Shown: positions 14,166 to 62,802 of the stretch, piece by piece
Layout of the letters: the number at the start of each line of letters is the position of its first letter
Numbering within the stretch: the stretch's first letter is position 1
Origin: Podarcis cretensis
Lineage: Eukaryota
Assembly: GCA_951804945.1 (NCBI GenBank)
Contig: OX638152.1
Location: 29,326,001 to 29,390,000, forward strand
Direction of reading: 5' to 3'
DNA: 64,000 nt
Position numbers and translations under genes: made by a program
The notes under the pieces: generated by a model
What the model saw: only the letters and a program-made list of their open reading frames with translations
Database searches by the model: none
Told to the model about the DNA's origin: nothing

Positions 14166-14637
14166 ACCATTGTCTAGAAAGAACAATGTAGCAGAGAGAG
14201 GTAAGCTAGCCAGTTAGTTGCTATGTCAGCCAAGAAGGCGCTATCTATAGGCCAAATTTGGTCTGTGGGGATCAGTTATCTACCTCAAATAAATAAATGA
14301 ATGTTCTTCATGAACTCTAATCAATCTTTGCTACGGTTTAATATTTCCAAGTTTGCAAAGTGTTCATTTTCAGAAACGTTTTGCGATTCCACACTGTAAT
14401 TAGTTCTGAGTAAAATTTCCAGGGGCTTGCCCCCATAATATACAAATATTTAAAACTCACAAGGTGAGCAACCAAACAGTGGTATGAAGTAGGACCTTAG
14501 GAAACATTTTATACATGTGCCTCATGACCACAGAAATATCTCCCAATCCATTAGGTTGCCCTTCTCTATAACCACAAACATTAGAAATTTGCTTCGGGAG
14601 TTTATTTTGTTTTTAAGATGTACTAAGATTCTAAAGC

Positions 14638-15002
14638 GGGACGCGGGTGGCGCTGTGGGTAAAAGCCTCAGCGCCTAGGGCTTGCCGATCGAAAGGTCGG
14701 CGGTTCGAATCCCCGCGGCGGGATGCGCTCCCGCTGCTCGGTCCCAGCGCCTGCCAACCTAGCAGTTCGAAAGCACCCCCGGGTGCAAGTAGATAAATAG
14801 GGACCACTTACTGGTGGAAAGGTAAACAGCGTTTCCGTGTGCTGCGCTGGCTCGCCAGATGCAGCTTTGTCACGCTGGCCACGTGACCCGGAAGTGTCTC
14901 CGGACAGCGCTGGCCCCCGGCCTCTTGAGTGAGATGGGCGCACAACCCCAGAGTCTGTCAAGACTGGCCCGTACGGGCAGGGGTACCTTTACCTTTACCT
15001 TT
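14638..15002 (+). mobile_element. Full-length Sauria SINE (young, CpG-rich)
   Basis: tRNA-like head gggacgcgggtggcgctgtgggtaaa (A box) ... ggttcgaatcc (B box); (TACCTT)n tail; 13-bp TSD taagattctaaag at 14624-14636 and 15002-15014. Confidence 0.93.
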
Positions 15003-15107
15003 AAGATTCTAAAGGTTTTGTTGAAGCTGCTGTATTCCATTTCAAAATTATACTTCACACTCCATGCTATTATTGGTTCTGTGTAGATATTTCAGAGCCC
15101 GTTGATA

Positions 15108-15849: not shown

Positions 15850-16090
15850 CAGTGGTACCTCAGGTTACAAACACCTCGGGTTACAAATGCCTCGGGTTCC
15901 AGACTCCGCTAACCTGGAAGTAGTACCTCGGGTTAAGAATTTACCTCAGGATGAGAACAGAAATCGTGTGACAGCGGCATGGCGGCAGCAGGAGGCCCCA
16001 TTAGCTAAAGTGGTACCTCAGGTTAAGAACAGTTTCAGGTTAAGAACGGACCTCCAGAATGAATTAAGTTCATAACCAGAGGTACCACGG
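15850..16090. mobile_element. Tc1/mariner (Tigger-like) MITE, copy 1
   Basis: TA|cagtggtacctc ... gaggtaccacgg|TA with repeated cctcgggtta subterminal motifs; same family as 61418-61643. Confidence 0.88.
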
Positions 16091-17429
16091 TACTGTAGTG
16101 CTTAAATGCAACATCTGTGTGTACAGCTTTTTGTTTTGCCACTGAGCTATATAGACCTACCTCAAAGCTGGCTTGTATCACACTGGGCTTTTTTTTATTT
16201 GTGTTTTATAGAGAAGAGGAAAGACAGTAAAGCGGAAAGATAGTGGGCATAATGAGACAAAACCAAATAAGAGGGTGAAAGAAGCAGGGAGGAATGAAAA
16301 GAAGCAGTAATGTATTTGGGCTAAAATTAGGTCCTGATCTGTACAGGGTGTAGACTATTGATCACAACTGTGGAACTGTATAAGATATACATTGACATAG
16401 CTGTAGTGTCAGATTGAATCCTGTACCTAGAAGCAAGCAGTCTAAAACTGAGGGATGCGTGTGAAGCAGGGGCAGCAAGATTTTCAGCCAAGCATGTTTA
16501 GGGCCAAGCACCCAGCAAACGAGTATACAAGGAAATGGGATTAAGAGGTATAGCAAACTACCCCCCCCCCCAAAAAAAATAGGCCCTTGCCGAGTAAAAT
16601 TAAGTGAACCTCATATTGTTTTCCCAATACTGTATTCAGATAAAGAAGGAATAAAACTGGCACATATGTGGAGAAATGTTGGCTGTGTCACTATTGGTTA
16701 TATTTCAGATCACAACAGAAGGAAGTCGCCACTTACGCGGTACTAACATAAATGTTTCTGAAGCTTTCAGTATCAAAATTAACAACAGCCTTCTAGAGGA
16801 ATTTAAAACAGCTTGCTGTGAGATTAAATCCCATAGATTTTACCTTGATGGACTTTTTGAGGCTTGTGCTTATGGATTTTAATATTAAAACTTTTAGTTG
16901 ACCTTACTCTATAAGAAAACATCCTTAACACTGATGTTATTTTTATGCCTCTTGGTGATACTAATGAGTTGAATAATTTATGAGGTTGTCATGTGAAAAG
17001 GATTTGGTGCAGTTTGATGTATTTTCAGCCTCTGGTGCTGGAATGTGATTAATAAAGCGCTAGAAGCACAGAATTTTTTTTCCATGGGGCTTAACTTTCA
17101 TTAGGGATTTTTCATCAGTGTTATTTTGATAATTTTTATAGCTGTCTGGTATAGTAGCAAAATTACTCTTAGTTTTAAGAATGAAAATCACATTAGACAA
17201 ATAAAATGGTTTTTTTTTGTTTTAAAGGGAGGTAGTTTACTCGCCTCGCATATCTTCTTAGTGGAAAATGACAGAGAGAGTAATGAGTCGCATAACGCAT
17301 TTTTGTGGGGGTTGTTGTTTGTTAAATCTTGCCTCTAAATGTAGTACCATGAATGCTGCTTTGAGTATCCATATAATAGTGGGAAACATCTTAGTAGTTT
17401 TTCGTTATCTACATTGACTGTCAGTTATC

Positions 17430-19519: not shown

Positions 19520-22500
19520 AGCAAAAAACACATGAAGGTCTCATGTATGTACTTTGGCATAGGAGTTTCATAAACTCTGGATCAGGTTCCAATAACATAT
19601 CTTTACTTGGTATGTGGATGGTGTATAATCAAGAAAGCACTATTGAGTTGTCTCAACAGTGGTGATGAAAATAAAGGTGGCCCCTAACATATGTATGACT
19701 GAAGCCATTTATGCTATGATGTCACAGCAGAAAAAGTCCTACTCCTCATAATTTCCAAAGCTGGTGGCAGACCAGGGCTTTCCCCAAAGATCTAGAAGGG
19801 TGGGGAAAATCGTATGTAGGGGAGCAGATAGTCACTGGGAAATAGAAATGGTTGATATGCAGCCTTGAAGCAAAGAATAGGGCATGGCACTGTCTTGATC
19901 TGTTGTATGGATCTGTTTGGGGTGGGGGGATAACAATGACCAGCTTCAAGCTGAATCTATGCCGTTTAGCTATAGAATTTAGTGCCTAGTTTAAAGGAGC
20001 ATAAATCTATACCACCCAGCATCCTATGCATGTGTTCCTATTTGTGAAGAGGAATTGGTTGTGCACACATGGATTTCCATTGCAAACAGAATGTCGCAAT
20101 CTCTCTTTGATTTCAACTTATCATTTGCTCATGCCTTTTTAGTTTTGTGACTTACAATTTGAATTAGGAATGTTCATAAAAGAATGCTACAAGATAAAGT
20201 GCGGGGAAATAACTGCTTTGATAATCATTCCTTCTAAAATGACTAAGCATTCCCATCTGTGCATGTGTACTACAGTTTCTTACTAGTGAATCATGCATTT
20301 TTCCCCCTACCAGGGGGAAAAGCTACTTTCATTTTCAGTGTCTTTTGAAAATAATATTTTCAAATGTAACGGTGCACAAAGCATAGCACGTAGCACAACA
20401 TTCTTTGTTCATTTTTATGCTGAGCTTTTACTTCAATATAAGTACAAGATGAGAATATATTTCTGGAACTTTTATGGAGTGGCATCCACTTCATGGACAG
20501 AGATTATGTAGATACTAATCTAGATATTACAGTGACGAGCTCTTTTAAAATGTGTATTCAGTGGTAAAGGGCTTCCAGATGTCATCAAATAACTCTTCTC
20601 TGTTCTTCAGTCTAAATGTGATGATCTCAGAGGAAGCAATGTAAGACAGGCATGTAAACCATTCCGTTTTACTTAAAGAGCATTGTCTTCCCCAGATTTT
20701 CTTCCTTTTTCTTTCTTTCTTTCTTTCTTTCTTTTTTTGCTGCTTTTGGTTCATTTATCAATCAACTTTTCCATTTTCACCCTGCATCTTTGCTATCCAA
20801 AATTTATTTCATTGCATTGATGCATGTTCATCTTTTTTAGTACAGTACAGATTTGTTAATAATTTCCCATGCACAGTGTGTCTTGTTTTGAGGTTGCTGT
20901 TCTCTTGTGAGAATATTGCGCTTTCCAAGCACAGTCCTGTGAATGTGGGGAAATGCCCCAAAATGTTCATTAATTGACTGCTATGATTTTTATGAGGACT
21001 GCTGCTGTTCAGGTGTGTTGGGTTTTTCTTTTGACAAGATAGCTATGTGCGCCACAGTGTCCCATTCTGCCACCATTTTGTGAGGATTTTTTTTTTAAAT
21101 TGCTTTGGAGACTTTTGCTTTGTTATGTGGTGAATGACCTCGTGAGTCAGGTATAGAATATTTTGTCTACTCTTAGAATTTCCCCTCTAAAGATAAAATG
21201 ATTTATACTCATTTATACTCTTGTGACTACCAATTTAAATACAGAATCAAAATTTACATGTGGAGCTTTTCAGAGGTTTCATCTCCAGTCCTGTGAATGA
21301 ATTCCTTTACTTCCCTGGACTTAGCAGCAACCCTTCAGATTCATTCTATAATTTCATTTTTTTTCAATGAAGGAAACCCAAGTTGTATTTAATTCTCAAG
21401 TGGCAAGAAGCATTGATGGGGGGCATTTTAATTATCAGGTTTGGAACCTTAGTTAGTTAGTTTTGTTTAGCTTTTGCTTGTTACATTTTAACCCTACTAG
21501 AAGATTCAATACTTATCATTTATGTGTAACCTCTAAGGCAAGTTTTATTATAGTCTATTTCAAAATAATTATCTACCTTCTCTTAAGAGTATTCCTACAT
21601 TATCTTGCACTTCCATAGTATACAATCACATTACAAGTGTTCAAGTCATATTGCAAATTCAAGAACACATTTTAGCTTTTTTAATTGCATTTTTTCTCTT
21701 GGTCTATTTTATAAATAACTTTCCTATCAATAAAAGCTATCTTTTATATAAATATAAAATATGTCTTCTTTTAAAAATATATTTTTGAACTAGTATTAGA
21801 AGGTAGGTAGGGTGTATTTGGAAAAGGAAATTGTGAAAACGCATTGCATGGCTTTTGAAAGTCAGTACACTCTATTAGCAAATCTGTCAATATAAAAAGT
21901 GCATTCCATTTCCACCTCTTGCTCTAATAACCTTTTCTATGTTACTCACAGGCAGTTCACATAATCAGAGTGTATTGTCAGCTTACTGGAGTTGGGGAAG
22001 CATGAAATGAAAATCACGTTAATATTGATCCAATTCTTTCTTGCAAGTGTCCTTGATGTCCTTTGCTACTGAGCAGTAGCTATTTATTATATTTGGGAAA
22101 ATAACTCAGTTATGACTATTCTTTGTAAACTGTATTCAAGCATAATTATTATTAATGTAGTTTTTGCTACTTGTCATTATTTTCTCCTTTTCAATATTTT
22201 GTAATATAAGATCATTAAATCACAAGTAATCACCTCCTTATTTGCTAGCCTTTGCTATATAATGAATGTCTGCAACTTAAGACATTATGTTAACTAATGA
22301 AAGGTATGTACAATATGGGTTAAATTATCTGGACATGTCCCTTATGAGATTTTCATTGACAAATGCTGCTTACAAGGTCAGATGTCATTGCTCTGTTCCA
22401 GCATTACAGTACTGAATTTTCTTAAGTACAACACCTCTCAAAATGAAAATAACCACCAGTGTTTGGCATGTTTATTGGAAAGCAGGGCAAAAAATGAATT

Positions 22501-23787: not shown

Positions 23788-24099
23788 GCCAAACCAAACC
23801 AGGATTCTCAACTGGGCTTACACACTGCAGTACACCTTCTGGCCATTATTAGGGAGGTGCTATACAGCAATAACCAGTCCAGCAGTTTCTTGGTGTGTGA
23901 CCTGCCCTGATTCTTCCAAAACGTTGCCCTGAGCCCTGCTGCTAGATCTGCAAGTTGGTGCCTGCTGGGACTTTGCAGTCTCATGATTGCATCTTTTAAA
24001 TTGTTTACCGCCTGACGCAGTTTTACTTTTACAATATTAAAGAAGGAAGACATGCCAAATGTGTACGTTTTCTTGCTCTCGTTTCATACCTCAGGTAAT

Positions 24100-24138
24100 G
24101 AAGTCCAATGCGCTACCCATTGCGCCACAGAGCCGCAA
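24100..24138 (-). pseudogene. Tailless retrocopy of the 5' half of tRNA-Arg(UCU)
   Basis: Minus strand reads ttgc-GGCTCTGTGGCGCAATGGGTAGCGCATTGGACTTC, i.e. nt 1-35 of vertebrate tRNA-Arg-TCT as I recall it (acceptor 5' strand, GCGC/GCGC D-stem, TTGGA anticodon stem). Flanked by a perfect 17-bp repeat atacctcaggtaatgaa (24086-24102, 24139-24155). No 3' half and no poly(A). Confidence 0.88.
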
Positions 24139-25399
24139 ATACCTCAGGTAATGAAATGTGTTATCTCTTAAGAGTTAATTCATTAGTACCCTTGACTATA
24201 AACTGAAACAGGGACATTATGCTAAAAAGCAACACAGGCTAAGATGCTTTAATAAGAAATAAGAAACGTCGTATAAGTGTCCAAGAGAGTAGAACTTCAC
24301 AAAAACATCTTTATTCTGTAAAAGATTTTTTAAATTAAATGCAGCATTTTATTGTGAAGCAGACAGAACTTTAGTTATGTCAAAACACTCTTTTAGGAGC
24401 CACATAAAGCTGTAAAAGACGGTATATGAAAAGGCATTCTTAAAGAAAAGAAATCACCATCCCATGAAGCTGATTTCCAGATGTTTGGAAACATTAGAAT
24501 TTCCTGTCAGTACATTTAGGTAACACTAAAATGAGTTAACTTTCCATTCTGCCAGCCCTCTTCAAAGATGAAAGAGAACTCTCTGCATAAATTGCCTTAT
24601 CTATAATTCACTGAAGTAAGCTGTGGAATGAACTCTGAAAGACGCAGAACTCTCCCTTGGCTTGTATCATGGCCTCTAAGCAAACTTTACTTTTATTTCC
24701 ACTCTCTTTTTAAAATGAAATTAGTGACCTTAAAAGTTGAATGGATGTTAATGAGTGATGATGTTGAGTGGTTTGTTTGAACTGAGTTATGTGCTTGGTT
24801 TGAATTTTGTATTTGTATTTGTATTTTTTTTGCTTCTGCCTCTCAGAAAGTCTGCCCATGTCTGAAATCAGCCACGTTATGAGTCTACATTTATTCAAGT
24901 AGCCTTGAACTGACTTTTTGTAAGCATGGACACAGCAGGTTATCTTTGAAGCTTAGCTTGCATACCTAGTACCAGCTGTGACCTGAAGAATCCAAATGAG
25001 AATTTACAAGTTTAAATGAAATTTGAGAGGAAAATATGGATGTTATCAAAATAAATGTTGACATGCCAAATACCGTTTTCAAAAGGCTCTCTGTCATTAT
25101 ATTTCATGCTTCTTGCTGTTTCATTGTACTTTAAAGAGAGAAAATATTCTTTATAATGAGTGCACTCCTTATTCCACTGAATCAGAGGCCCCATTCCCTT
25201 TGATTTGATGGAATCTGGATTAATGCAGGTCTGTACCTTGGTCTATCCGCTCATAATATATACTGGTCTCAGGTGATTCCTTGAGTAGAATTTGTGTTTC
25301 AGTGAGAAGGATTAAACTTTTAAACTCTTAGCTGCAATTTCATACACCCTTTAAAAAGGAAAGAGTGGTGCTCACATTTCCCTTGCTAAACACAAAGGA

Positions 25400-31059: not shown

Positions 31060-31791
31060 CAGTGGTGCCTCGCAAGACGAACGCCTCGCAAAACGAAAAA
31101 CTCGCAAGACGAAAGAGTTTTCCATTTTTGAGTCGTTCCGCAAGACAAATTTCCCTATGGGCTTGCTTCGCAAGAAGAAAGCCCATAGGGAAATCTCCGG
31201 GACCTCTTTTAAAATGCTGGCCGTCGGGAGCAAAGACTTTCGCCCACCGCCGGCCTTCAGAAGAGGTCCTGGACCTCTTCTGAAGGCCGGCGGGGGGCAA
31301 AAGTCTTTGCTCCCCCCCCCACCTGCCTTCCCGGGATAGCGGAGAAGCGCAGCACGTTTCTCCGCTATCCCGGACGGCTTTTAAAGGCAGGCGGGGGGGA
31401 GGAAAGACTTTCGCCCACCGCCTGCCTTCAGAAGACCTCCGCTGTCCCGGGGCGATCTTAAAATGCTGGCGGGCAGCAGCGAAGCCCTCCTGTCCCCGGA
31501 GCTTGCGGGGCGGGAGGTGGGGAGAAGGGCTTTTCTTCCCACCGCCAGCCTTCAGAACAGCCTTCTGAAGGCTGGCGGTGGGAAGAAAAGCCCTTGTTCC
31601 CCCCCCCCCCAGCCTTCAGAAGAGGTCGGGGGACAGACTGTCCCCGGACCTGGTCTGAAGGTGGTTTCCATAGGAACGCATTGATTGGTTTTCAATGCAT
31701 TCCTATGGTTAACCGTGCTTCGCAAGACGAAAAACTCGCAAGAAGAAAAAACTTGCGGAACGAATTTATTTCGTCTTGCGAGGCACCACTG
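31060..31791. mobile_element. Tc1/mariner (Tigger-like) non-autonomous element with internal fold-back palindromes
   Basis: Perfect 22-bp TIR cagtggtgcctcgcaagacgaa, TA on both flanks (31058-31059, 31792-31793), subterminal tcgcaaga repeats, CpG-rich (young). Confidence 0.93.
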
Positions 31792-43500: not shown

Positions 43501-43838
43501 TCAGAGCATGGTTTCCCTAGTCGTTTTGTGTATTGTGGAATGAATCCCATCTGTAAACTGGGATAGTATGACTAACTGAGAAGTTGGTGTTCCATGTCAT
43601 TTTTCCAGAATATCATTTACAGCCCTGAAGAGGTATTGGAACTTGTTTTCTGAGCAGGTTTTGTGGCTTAATGCATGAAACCCATCTAGCTATGTGTGAC
43701 TGGTGGATATGGATAATTAGGCGAGCTCAGAAGTTAACATTCCAGAGCATTTACTCTGTTTATGACCCAGAGCAGGTAGTTCTGTGGAATATTTTTGTGG
43801 TTTATATTATATATGTGACTTGTGAATGTGATAGATCT

Positions 43839-44265
43839 GTTGTTGTTTAGTCGTTTAGTCGTGTCCGACTCTTCATGACCCCATGGTCCAGAGCACGCCA
43901 GGCACTCCTGTCTTCCACTGCCTCCCGCAGTTTGGTCAGGCTCATGTTTGTAGCTTCGAGAACACTGTCCAACCATCTCGTCCTCTGTCGTCCCCTTCCC
44001 CTTGTGCCCTCCATCTTTCCCAACATCAAGGTCTTTTCCAGGGAGTCTTCTCTTCTCATGAGGTGGCCAAAGTATTGGAGCCTCAGCTTCACGATCTGTC
44101 CTTCCAGTGAGCACTCAGGGCTGATTTCCTTAAGAATGGATACGTTTGATCTTTTTGCGGTCCATGGGACTCTCAAGAGTCTCCTCCAGCACCATAATTC
44201 AAAAGCATCAATTCTTCGGCGATCAGCCTTCTTGATGGTCCAGCTCTCACTTCCATACATCACTA
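43839..44265 (-). mobile_element. 5'-truncated Bov-B (RTE clade) LINE
   Basis: Uninterrupted 138-aa C-terminal ORF MYGSESWTIKKADRRRIDAFELWCWRRLLRVPWTA...WRALDHGVMKSRTRLND; (CAA)n tail; 11-bp TSD gtgatagatct (43828-43838, 44266-44276). Confidence 0.95.
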
Positions 44266-44463
44266 GTGATAGATCTAGTTAGCTCTGAAGTTGTTGTGCC
44301 CTGGCCATTCCTCTCTTACAGATGGGTTCTGGTTGCGAAGGGGTTAATACATAATATTTGAAGGGTTTCCATTCTAAAATATTATGTCTAACGCAACTTC
44401 CCGGTTTGGGCATTCCACCATGTTCCATAGGAAAGGGACCATAAACCAACAGTAAGGAAAGTA

Positions 44464-58000: not shown

Positions 58001-59419
58001 ATTAAAACAGTACAAGCAAAAATCGCATATGAGTACTGTGTATCACACAGAGTCTTATGTCACTTACAGAGCTCAGGCATAGTGGGTAATATCCAAATAA
58101 TGTTTCTCACAGATTAGTTATGGCGCTGTGCCAAAAATAAGCCAAAGTATCTCCGTAAATTTCCAAAATGGTATTTATACTACATTCTGTTCTTCTGGAG
58201 ACTTGAGAACAACCACTAAGATCTCTCTTTTATGTTTTAAATAAACCATTCAGTGTTGTTAGAAGAATGTTTAAGACAAGCACACTTTCTTCTTTGCAAC
58301 AACAGGTTGTATAGTGCTGGCAAGTAAATAGCAGGCAGGATAATATGGGGAAATGCACTGCCGTGTTTGGTTTATTTATTTATCAACTGCATCAAAAGCA
58401 GACATTCTCAGCATGCCTGATTTCAGTTAAAGCAGTCCAACAGTGACGTTTTAAGAATCCTACTTTGGGAATGCTCTTTTTTTCCTGAACCCAGAATGGT
58501 CCATGGAATCAGAGGGGATTAGCTCCCTTTAATCTACTGCATCTGCAGTGGGTCAACCAACAGAACTTTCATTACTGTTTCATGTTGTATGTGATTAAGT
58601 GACTAAAATATTCAATACTGACCTTGAAAATGAAGCAGCATGTGTTGGATAAACAGCTTTGAAAGCTTAAAGTAATCTTTCCTATAAACAAGATTTCTAA
58701 AATGTATTGTTTAACAGAGTGAACAGGATGACCAGAAAGGCATCGTTTGTAAGAGGGAACTGAATTTCTAGAAGCAGACATAAGTAAAAATGTACAAAAG
58801 ATTAAAACACATTCATATACTATCAGATGTTATTCGGATGGTTAGCACGATGCACACAAGCTGCCTTAATTATTGTGAAGTACTCGTGCTTAAATGGATT
58901 TTTACCTCACCTTAAGGACATTTACTTGGAAGCGTCCTACTGATTTTAGTTTAATTCGCCTCCCAAGTAAGGGCTGTTTTGAGATCTATTTTTCATATCT
59001 AAGGCCACTATTATGCATGATACTAGGTAGAAACCAGTGTGAGAAAAATACATAGCTTTTCTTTTAGTCACATGGAATCTGCCACAAGTATTCGGAGGCA
59101 GAAGTTGTAAATGAATCATTGTAGGTATGAAGCTGAGCATGAGTTTTAATAGGCCACTGTTAGGCATGCATTACACTGGGCTGAAACCAGTGTTTCTGGA
59201 AGTAGTGCCTAGAGTCACACAGCATCTGTGTTTCTGGAGTTAAAAGTCTGCAGTTAGAACCGGATTTTGCAACACAGTATTTTCAAACTTTTATGCTGTG
59301 ATTTTGAACTTTAAAAAATACATTGATTTAAGCTGTGAAATTCCTAGGTACTGAGAATCTGCAAGGCAACAAATTGCTGTACACCTGATTTTTAGAAGTG
59401 TCGTGAATTTAGTGGATAG

Positions 59420-59780
59420 GTAAAGGTAAAGGTACCCCTGCCCGTACGGGCCAGTCTTGACAGACTCTGGGGTTGTGCGCCCATCTCACTCAAGAGGCCA
59501 GGGGCCAGCGCTGTCCGGAGACACTTCCGGGTCACGTGGCCAGCGTGACAAAGCTGCATCTGGCGAGCCAGAGCCGCACACGGAAACGCTGTTTACCTTC
59601 CCACTGGTAAGCGGTCCCTATTTATCTACTTGCACCCGGAGGTGCTTTCGAACTGCTAGGTTGGCAGGCGCTGGGACCGAGCAGCGGGAGCGCACCCCGC
59701 CGCAGGGATTCGAACCGCCGACCTTTTGATTGGCAAGTCCTAGGCGCTGAGGCTTTAACCCACAGCGCCACCTGCGTCCC
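59420..59780 (-). mobile_element. Full-length Sauria SINE (young)
   Basis: Reverse-complement near-copy of 14638-15002; 15-bp TSD gaatttagtggatag (59405-59419, 59782-59796). Confidence 0.93.
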
Positions 59781-60529
59781 GGAATTTAGTGGATAGTTCA
59801 AGGCAAATTCAAAAGCACTCCACCACCAGTCACCTCCATACTATACTCCTACTCCTTATAGCCATTAACAAGAAGCCACTTATCCTGAGAAACCAAAGAA
59901 ATATCTGGATTCAATTAAGCCAAGGTCCAGAGGCTGGTAGAAAATCCTTGTTACTGCTGCAACTGATGAAGATGTATCAACCATATATGCTCAGCCATTG
60001 TTAGCCTGTGGCACTAGTTTTTTTTCCAAATTTGGCATTGTTGCATCTTTTCTCAGTAGTTGCAACAGCACAGGCCATTGTATGACTTATGGACATTATG
60101 GTATTTGATATGTTTTTAGATGGAGAGGTTTTGGTTGAACTGGCATTAGAAAGGGGAAATGTCATGGCAACACAGCTGTGTATGGACCACACTGCATGGT
60201 GGAACCATAGAGTTGGCAGGAATGAATAGTAACACACTCTTATGCCAAAAAAAGGCCAATAACAATAGTAACACAGCAGCTTTATTTTAGTGACTTCTAT
60301 ATACCATGATCTAATAATTCTTTAGTTGAAATTTGGAAACTATTTTGCAAATCAATTTTTCATATTTGAAGCCTAATGGTAGACTAACAAATGTATTTTA
60401 AGTTATAGTCCACTTGAAGTAGCTTAGAATAATATTAAAGCAACACAATATAGAAACAACAATGGCAGACCTGAACAAAAAAGCCCAGTTAAAATAAGTA
60501 GCAAGCACCAGTCTTAACTGGGGTTTGTG

Positions 60530-61417: not shown

Positions 61418-61643
61418 CAGTGGTACCTCGGGTTACATACGCTTCGGGTTACAGACTCCGCTAACCCAGAAATAGTGCTTCAGGTTAAGAACTTTGCTTC
61501 AGGATGAGAACAGAAATCGTGCTCCGGCGGCGTGGCAGCTGCAGGAGACCCCATTAGCTAACATGGTGCTTCAGGTTAAGAACAGTTTTAGGTTAAGTAC
61601 GGACCTCCGGAACGAATTAAGTACTTAACTCGAGGTACCACTG
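61418..61643. mobile_element. Tc1/mariner (Tigger-like) MITE, copy 2
   Basis: TA|cagtggtacctcgggtta ... taactcgaggtaccactg|TA (17 of 18 TIR). Confidence 0.9.
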
Positions 61644-62802
61644 TATAATTTTACATGCATTTACTCAGAAGTAATCCCCATGAGTTCAGTGAGACATACT
61701 CCCAGATAAGTGAGTATTCAATAGCAACCCTAATGACTGTTTTAAAATATACAAGGCAGCAGTGCTTTCAGTAATGCTTCCTTTGCCAGTGTGAGGAATG
61801 TCTCTAAATGTCCCCATTAATGACTGCTGGAGAAATTATTTTGATGAGTGATATGAAATGCATCTCCTCTGGAACACATTCTTTAAATATTCTAATTCCG
61901 GATGAAGCCATGACAGATTATCCAAAAAGTCAACACTCATGCAAGTTTTTCCCCAAACTACACTTTAAAGCAGATTAAGCTGTGATTAAAAATGTGGAAT
62001 TCAGGGTGGCCCAAGTCACTGAGCTGCCTGAGACAAAGCACAAGATGGTGCTCCCCCAACCTGTGTTCCACAATTTGCAGCTGCACTGACAACTGAATCT
62101 TAACCTCAACATTGTCCATCTGCCAATGTCTTCCACTGCATCCCAAGGCAGTTCAGAAAATGTCTGAACCACACCTTTATTCAGAAGTCTATCGGGCGGT
62201 GAACATAAAAGCAACGCAGTATTAAGACCAACAACTAATAAAATCAAAACAACATGAAATTTGAGGAAAATGCTTAGAGGTTGCAGGACAGGCAAAGCTC
62301 TTTCAGCCAACACCTTGCTACATCTGTCCCCAACCCCCTCCATGGCATCCACATTTTTCTGCCTAGTGGTAGGGTTAGTCCTGATGGAATGTCATTTTCC
62401 TGCCTTTCTTCTTTTACTGACTGGATGAAGCAACTGTCCACATTGTACTTCAGTGTGTCAAGAGGACTGGAGGCAACTGCTTACCTGGGCATCATAAAAT
62501 AAAAATCTGAAATATTGGCTTAGGGTAGAAGGTAAATAACTGCTGTTGGCTTGCAAAAAGCTGAAGCTAGCACCTAGGATTTGCTGCTTTTTCCTTTTTG
62601 AGCCGTGCTCTTCAACGGTCTATAAAATATGGTATCCATTCCTAAATGTCATTGCTATATAACTGGTGGACAGCCATGCATCCTGTCTCCATTTGCAGTT
62701 CTTTCTTTGCTGCTTTCTGCTGCTTGCTTTGTGCTGGTAAAACTCACTCTCAGTGTCTCTGTGGTCTGTAACTTTCAGCAGTAGCTGTGTTGCCCTATTG
62801 CA

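Follow-up and report, generated by a model that had tools for sequence, protein, structure and literature searches.

Tailless retropseudogenes are 5'-complete, 3'-truncated copies of small RNAs that carry no oligo(A) and are flanked by target site duplications (TSDs) of 8 to 35 bp. According to the sections of Noll 2015 (PMC5322556) drawn on here, they end in a single-stranded loop with 2 to 18 nt of complementarity to the target, extra 5' bases are allowed for precursors, and internal priming was concluded by default. The human table of that study has 32 Arg-TCT rows, and the copies among the 30 listed, given as coordinates only, are 36 to 66 nt long, the shortest being 36 to 37 nt. Outside human, its screens covered U2 and 5S only; tailless U2 and 5S copies were found in the green anole, where a relaxed L1 was predicted. 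The corresponding sections of Doucet 2015 (PMC4476161) describe 25 3'-truncated U6 copies in anole, as well as U6 chimeras with L1, L2, and RTE-X. These two reports contradict the first-pass annotation of the locus studied here, which held tailless copies to be essentially mammalian. We found no description of tRNA-derived tailless copies in squamates in the full-text literature, as judged from titles and the starts of abstracts, with most subscription papers falling outside the search. The other system of relevance is Bov-B, for which excerpts of Nakatsuka and Ohshima 2026 (PMC13295347) give a Tn-TA signature, i.e., a T-run about 10 nt upstream and TA at the start of the TSD.

The insert lies in a window of 64,000 nt from the lizard Podarcis cretensis (contig OX638152.1, positions 29,326,001 to 29,390,000; coordinates below are those of the window). 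A perfect direct repeat (17/17 bp; 24086-24102 and 24139-24155) encloses 36 bases, and all features are read on the minus strand. Read along the tRNA, the upstream 17-bp TSD copy (24139-24155, 100% identical to 24086-24102) is followed by four extra bases at the 5' junction (24138-24135) and then by nt 1-32 of tRNA-Arg(UCU), comprising the acceptor 5' strand, the D arm, and the anticodon 5' stem (24134-24103), with one D-loop substitution at 24116. The next three bases of the tRNA, nt 33-35, are shared with the downstream 17-bp TSD copy, of which they form the start (24102-24100 within 24086-24102), a 3-nt microhomology that probably marks the priming site in the anticodon loop. There is no poly(A) or simple-repeat tail at the 3' end, which falls in the single-stranded anticodon loop with 3 nt complementary to the target. 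Over nt 1-35 the insert is 34/35 identical to the Arg-TCT genes L002, L003, and L004, the sole mismatch being in the D loop. The anatomy and coordinates first reported for this locus were thus found again, and we agree that the junction departs from the canonical TT|AAAA site. Set beside the published class, the insert is 5'-complete (nt 1-35), at least 30 nt long, tailless, flanked by a 17-bp TSD, and terminated in a loop. These features support its identification as a retrocopy of a tRNA 5' half that has a TSD, 3 nt of microhomology, and no tail; among genomic fossils, it is an unremarkable representative of a class already described.

Exact 17-nt repeats spaced 30 to 120 nt apart occurred in 0 of 100 shuffled windows, and a reversed control pattern had no match across the 1.5-Gb genome. 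The flank at 24137-24420 is single-copy, and no paralogous empty site for the insert was found in the genome. Two read sets from different samples contain 1.00 and 0.99 of 103 words sampled from 23790-24700; both belong to one study, and one is possibly the assembly's own source. By our estimate about 8 of these words should fall across the insert or its junctions, so that the insert is very likely to be present in assemblies built from the reads. The word content argues against an assembly artefact. A stretch of N lies 300 bp from the insert, and the letters of the window do not by themselves make it an assembly gap. Sequencing runs of other organisms contain 0.43 to 0.72 of the sampled words, values that have no bearing on the presence or absence of the insert. 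The tRNA half was undetected in the window by ARAGORN and Rfam, an uninformative result, as the half is too short for either.

A search of the whole genome with a 35-nt pattern and 2 mismatches returned six matches, the insert and five intron-bearing Arg-TCT loci. With a 24-nt pattern and 3 mismatches there were nine: the previous six, the Arg-TCT locus L015, and fragments L013 and L014, at neither of which was a TSD found. The tally is therefore six full Arg-TCT loci, one insert, and two other fragments. Because no other Arg-UCU 5' half with a flanking TSD was found in the genome, and no SINE body adjoins the matches, the insert is not the head of a SINE; this candidate was rejected (0/9 matches run into a SINE body), and the abundant Arg-tRNA SINE that had been named as a possible undoing of the retrocopy reading did not appear among either the six or the nine matches. 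The statement that Arg-UCU tRNAs contain introns holds true for the Arg-UCU genes of this genome. The proposal that some Arg-TCT gene would carry the D-loop base of the insert fared less well, as the variant is absent from all six loci; unassembled or more diverged genes could carry it. Most simply, the difference arose as a later substitution or a copying error. Two loci, L006:1437-1544 (-) and L015:1497-1610 (+), appear to have been copied from unprocessed pre-tRNA-Arg(UCU) of gene L004. The tailless L006 is 98% identical over 108 nt to the L004 precursor, starting with a leader of 9 nt, crossing the intron, and reaching the terminator Ts, and no TSD was found there.

It is very improbable that the locus arose by something other than retroposition, that is, by templated insertion during DNA repair, as an assembly artefact, or from a truncated Arg-derived SINE. 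The last two extra bases do equal the genomic leader of two genes, as they would in a DNA-level copy. Against this stand a start at or just before nt 1, an end in the loop like that of the other halves described below, and the perfect 17-bp TSD, together with the absence of a SINE body at the genome matches and the word content of the read sets.

An L1 is present in this genome and copies small RNAs. Our L1 control set (n = 17) consists of 14 of 30 U6 loci, chosen for an A-rich end and a TSD of at least 11 bp, and three poly(A) U2 copies; the U6 loci left out are one with a 10-bp TSD, one chimera with Sauria, one that was doubtful, and 13 lacking a TSD of this length. The control sites have TSDs of 11 to 18 bp and show a pyrimidine followed by A-rich purines, a consensus that is partly built in, since the L1 matrix was aligned under the rule that a pyrimidine-purine step marks the nick. 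At four of the 17 poly(A) sites, U6 is fused to sequence that matches a two-ORF poly(A) element. At one locus (L203:581-6843, plus strand), U6 and a near full-length, poly(A)-tailed, two-ORF L1 share one 13-bp TSD, with ORF2 broken by a stop and frameshifts. Among solved structures, the two-ORF element comes closest to human L1 ORF2p (E 1e-82) and, with a weak match, to ORF1p. A Pfam search for L1 ORF1 gave no match and its controls were likewise silent, so it is uninformative. The near-perfect copies suggest that a relaxed L1 was recently active in this host.

The Bov-B system is represented by elements that we named Sauria SINE and Bov-B from the tails described in excerpts of PMC13295347; their occurrence in the window by itself points to a squamate host. 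Sixteen of 36 full-length Sauria SINE copies in fetched DNA have a TSD of at least 9 bp, and all of these are 9 to 15 bp long. In a first sample (n = 11, two doubtful rows of 13 having been removed), 10 TSDs start at TA and seven of the 11 also have an upstream T-run, which agrees with the signature reported in those excerpts. Bov-B LINE 3' ends yielded a credible TSD in two of 18 cases (11 and 13 bp); a third candidate was judged spurious. Within the window, two full-length young Sauria SINEs (14624-15014 on the plus strand and 59405-59796 on the minus strand) are 96% alike and have TSDs of 13 and 15 bp, both with the T-run/TA signature, and a 5'-truncated Bov-B 3' end of about 430 bp (43828-44276, minus strand) has a (CAA)n tail, an 11-bp TSD, and a T|A junction. 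Young Bov-B-system copies with TSDs of 11 to 15 bp are thus present in the window, as the first-pass annotation had said (11, 13, and 15 bp found). The window also holds internally repetitive elements at 15851-16092, 61425-61645, and 31069-31750, which resemble non-autonomous DNA transposons, and a 14-bp direct repeat flanking 340 bp (20932-21299).

Small RNAs have been captured by Bov-B in this genome as chimeras with its own or a SINE 3' end, as at L176, which bears the Bov-B signature, and at L069. The former is a U6-Sauria SINE chimera within one 13-bp TSD and the latter a truncated U2-Sauria SINE chimera with a 10-bp TSD. A second truncated U2-Sauria SINE chimera is L066, while L074 has a U2 fragment preceding Bov-B-like sequence and L059 has U2 followed by the start of U6.

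The tailless class is best sampled here by U2, whose 5' end has 143 matches in the genome. All 59 perfect non-gene matches were examined (seven genes and 77 mismatched matches were left out), and 55 of them are 3'-truncated, mostly at nt 33-44. A TSD of 10 to 21 bp flanks 31 of the 55 truncated copies, three of which (L077, L084, and L089) lie in repetitive targets; the other 24 have no TSD of at least 10 bp. The full Bov-B signature occurs in none of the 31 sites, whereas a pyrimidine precedes the TSD in 25 of them, with A enriched after it. TSD lengths are like those of the poly(A)/L1 set (Mann-Whitney p = 0.54, n = 31 and 17) and differ from those of the Sauria SINEs (p = 0.002, n = 16); TSDs of at least 17 bp occur in 14/31, 6/17, and 0/16 cases, respectively. 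The fit to the L1 matrix is moderate, with a median at the 81st background percentile, 8/31 sites above the 90th, and 7/31 scoring below -5; on the Bov-B matrix the median is at the 49th percentile and only one of 31 exceeds the 90th. In five U2 copies (L083, L105, L112, L126, and L128), the last two to five copied bases occur a second time at the 3' junction, as would follow if reverse transcription slipped and re-primed at its start.

Other tRNAs have left similar copies. Six hits came from a search for halves of Gly-TCC and Asp-GTC: five are 5' halves with TSDs of 9 to 20 bp that end at nt 37-38, and one has no TSD. In three of the five the site reaches L1-matrix scores of 4.9 to 5.6, as true poly(A) sites do; a fourth has a weak L1-type site and the fifth a Bov-B-like one. 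This last (L142:1494-1531, plus strand) is a Gly-TCC 5' half that has a 9-bp TSD and site scores of 7.3 for Bov-B and -8.1 for L1; it is a candidate for a tailless copy made by Bov-B, as a single weak case. At L141:1494-1530 (plus strand), an Asp-GTC 5' half lies within a tRNA-like SINE head and has 6 to 10 extra 5' bases, maybe a gene leader. A search of the genome for Ser and Leu halves gave no hits. A search for Lys halves gave 119; none of the 30 examined has a TSD of at least 9 bp, and most are Lys-derived SINE heads. When a four-tRNA cluster served as the BLAST query, nearly all matches were full genes. The six tRNA halves, counting the Arg insert, are a lower bound from a survey that covered Arg-TCT, Gly-TCC, Asp-GTC, Ser, Leu, and Lys. 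The scan for further tRNA halves with TSDs that the first-pass annotation had proposed thus yielded five additional copies, and their sites are mostly L1-like.

Based on this class of insertions in the genome, and not on its own site alone, we consider it probable (about 70%) that the Arg insert was made by a relaxed LINE-1. The site itself fits L1 only weakly: its best score on the matrix of 17 local poly(A) sites is -0.6, at the 62nd background percentile, which is why L1 is inferred from the class. This score is below that of 15 of the 17 poly(A) sites under leave-one-out scoring, and it falls inside the spread of scores of the tailless U2 sites (n = 31). Many of those sites are equally loose, so the earlier step from a non-canonical junction to a non-L1 enzyme does not follow.

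The first-pass annotation had favored Bov-B/RTE as the enzyme that reverse-transcribed the tRNA half, and Bov-B and Sauria SINEs are indeed young and abundant here, form chimeras with U6 and U2, and may account for the Gly half at L142. At the insert, Bov-B is directly disfavored. None of the four possible nick positions has TA at the junction or a T-run about 10 nt upstream, features of which TA marks 10/11 and both mark 7/11 of the sampled Sauria SINEs. The site ranks at the 28th background percentile on the Bov-B matrix, and the insert has neither a Bov-B-derived 3' end nor a microsatellite tail. The 17-bp TSD is longer than that of every Sauria SINE (maximum 15, n = 16) and of the two Bov-B LINE copies (11 and 13 bp), in what is a small sample. 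We therefore regard Bov-B as a very unlikely source, if marginally less so than an origin without retroposition.

A different non-LTR enzyme, neither Bov-B nor the L1 profiled here (e.g., a divergent L1/Tx1, RTE-X, L2, CR1, or Rex1), is unlikely, yet deserves more weight than Bov-B. The insert site is not L1-like by itself, some tailless U2 sites fall below -5 on the L1 matrix, and many clades are active in lizards, the anole U6 chimeras in the cited sections of PMC4476161 involving L2 and RTE-X as well as L1. A need to pair with an RNA end other than A would be expected to relax the consensus of the site on its own, and a shifted consensus is also reported in the cited part of Noll 2015 (PMC5322556). 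L2, as treated in the passages of PMC4476161 drawn on, has 1- to 9-bp TSDs in platypus and is called stringent, and the TSD lengths of the tailless copies agree with the poly(A)/L1 set. The profiles compared here are those of L1 and the Bov-B system. A broader version of the idea, which we find doubtful but slightly less so, is that more than one enzyme lies behind lizard tailless copies: L1, a second non-LTR reverse transcriptase that nicks more loosely, and occasionally Bov-B (as perhaps at L142), with the insert as a product of the second. If this were true, a second enzyme would capture tRNA precursors or fragments without a LINE-like tail, and tailless retroposition would no longer mark relaxed L1.

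Whichever enzyme acted, the template can be considered separately. The exact four-base sequence is absent upstream of all six Arg-TCT loci, contrary to the suggestion that it might precede one of them. The leaders of L002 and L003 match the last two extra bases and differ at the third by a CpG-type transition; in simulation, chance yields the two-base match in 17% of cases, and in 8% when the third base is counted as a transition. U2 has no leader, and 5/31 tailless U2 copies also carry one to four extra 5' bases, three of them having four. The four bases in the insert (24135-24138) may be an untemplated addition or a decayed pre-tRNA leader. Extra bases are more frequent among the tRNA halves (4/6) than among the U2 copies (5/31; Fisher p = 0.02), and this excess, with the precursor-like copies L006 and L015, gives a hint of nuclear precursors, in small numbers.

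Microhomology of at least 2 nt is seen in five of the six TSD-flanked tRNA halves and in 12/31 U2 copies, where chance gives about 7%. This excess fits pairing of a nicked DNA end with an exposed loop, and the evidence leans towards internal priming over a cleaved half as the explanation for the insert. The Arg copy stops two bases before the splice site, so that any of three RNAs (mature tRNA, pre-tRNA, or the splicing 5' exon) could have served as template and no cleaved half need be invoked. It is possible, though rather unlikely, that the template was instead cut beforehand, either as a stress-cleaved 5' half or as a splicing 5' exon whose last base is nt 37. The 3' ends of all six TSD-flanked tRNA copies fall in the anticodon loop (nt 35-38), but the search design could find only such ends; the intron-bearing Arg-UCU genes imply that a free 5' exon exists, and the excess of extra bases and the resemblance of L006 and L015 to unspliced precursor point the same way. 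An end at nt 35 falls short of the exon boundary, and microhomology far exceeds chance. U2, which is not known to be cleaved at nt 33-44, yields the same product class. In the parts of Noll 2015 (PMC5322556) cited here, no truncated RNAs match the 5S and U2 copies.

We propose the following sequence of events for this tailless tRNA-Arg(UCU) 5' half, with its perfect TSD and three shared bases at the 3' junction. A relaxed LINE-1 would have nicked the chromosome, and the DNA 3' end would have annealed to nt 33-35 in one of three RNAs, an intact mature tRNA, a pre-tRNA, or a splicing 5' exon, which was then copied up to the RNA 5' end. When the second strand was joined, the four bases may have been added or a leader may have been their template, and the TSD would have come from a second, staggered nick. 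Without a B box, the insert would be dead, a neutral fossil.

As a single locus, this fossil is of use, at most, for scoring presence or absence among related lizards. Together with the five Gly/Asp halves, it extends tRNA-derived tailless retropseudogenes to squamates. The local site comparison is a first test, in a genome with active L1 and Bov-B, of the published prediction that lizard tailless copies are L1 products, and its importance would rise if some of these copies proved to come from a second enzyme. Compared with the tailless retropseudogenes in the cited parts of Noll 2015, the insert has the same build, whereas the host is a squamate and the source a tRNA, and its target does not follow the human consensus TT/WAAAAWW (PMC5322556). 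Anolis and this genome both have truncated copies and U6 chimeras with L1 and with non-L1 elements; the passages of Doucet 2015 (PMC4476161) used here concern snRNAs, not tRNAs, and contain no lizard target-site profile. Like Bov-B LINEs as well as Sauria SINEs (excerpts of PMC13295347), a system active in both the genome and the window, the insert is a product of target-primed reverse transcription with a TSD. Those elements have a (CAA)n or (ACCTTT)n tail at their end and show the Tn-TA signature, whereas the insert has neither and its TSD is longer.
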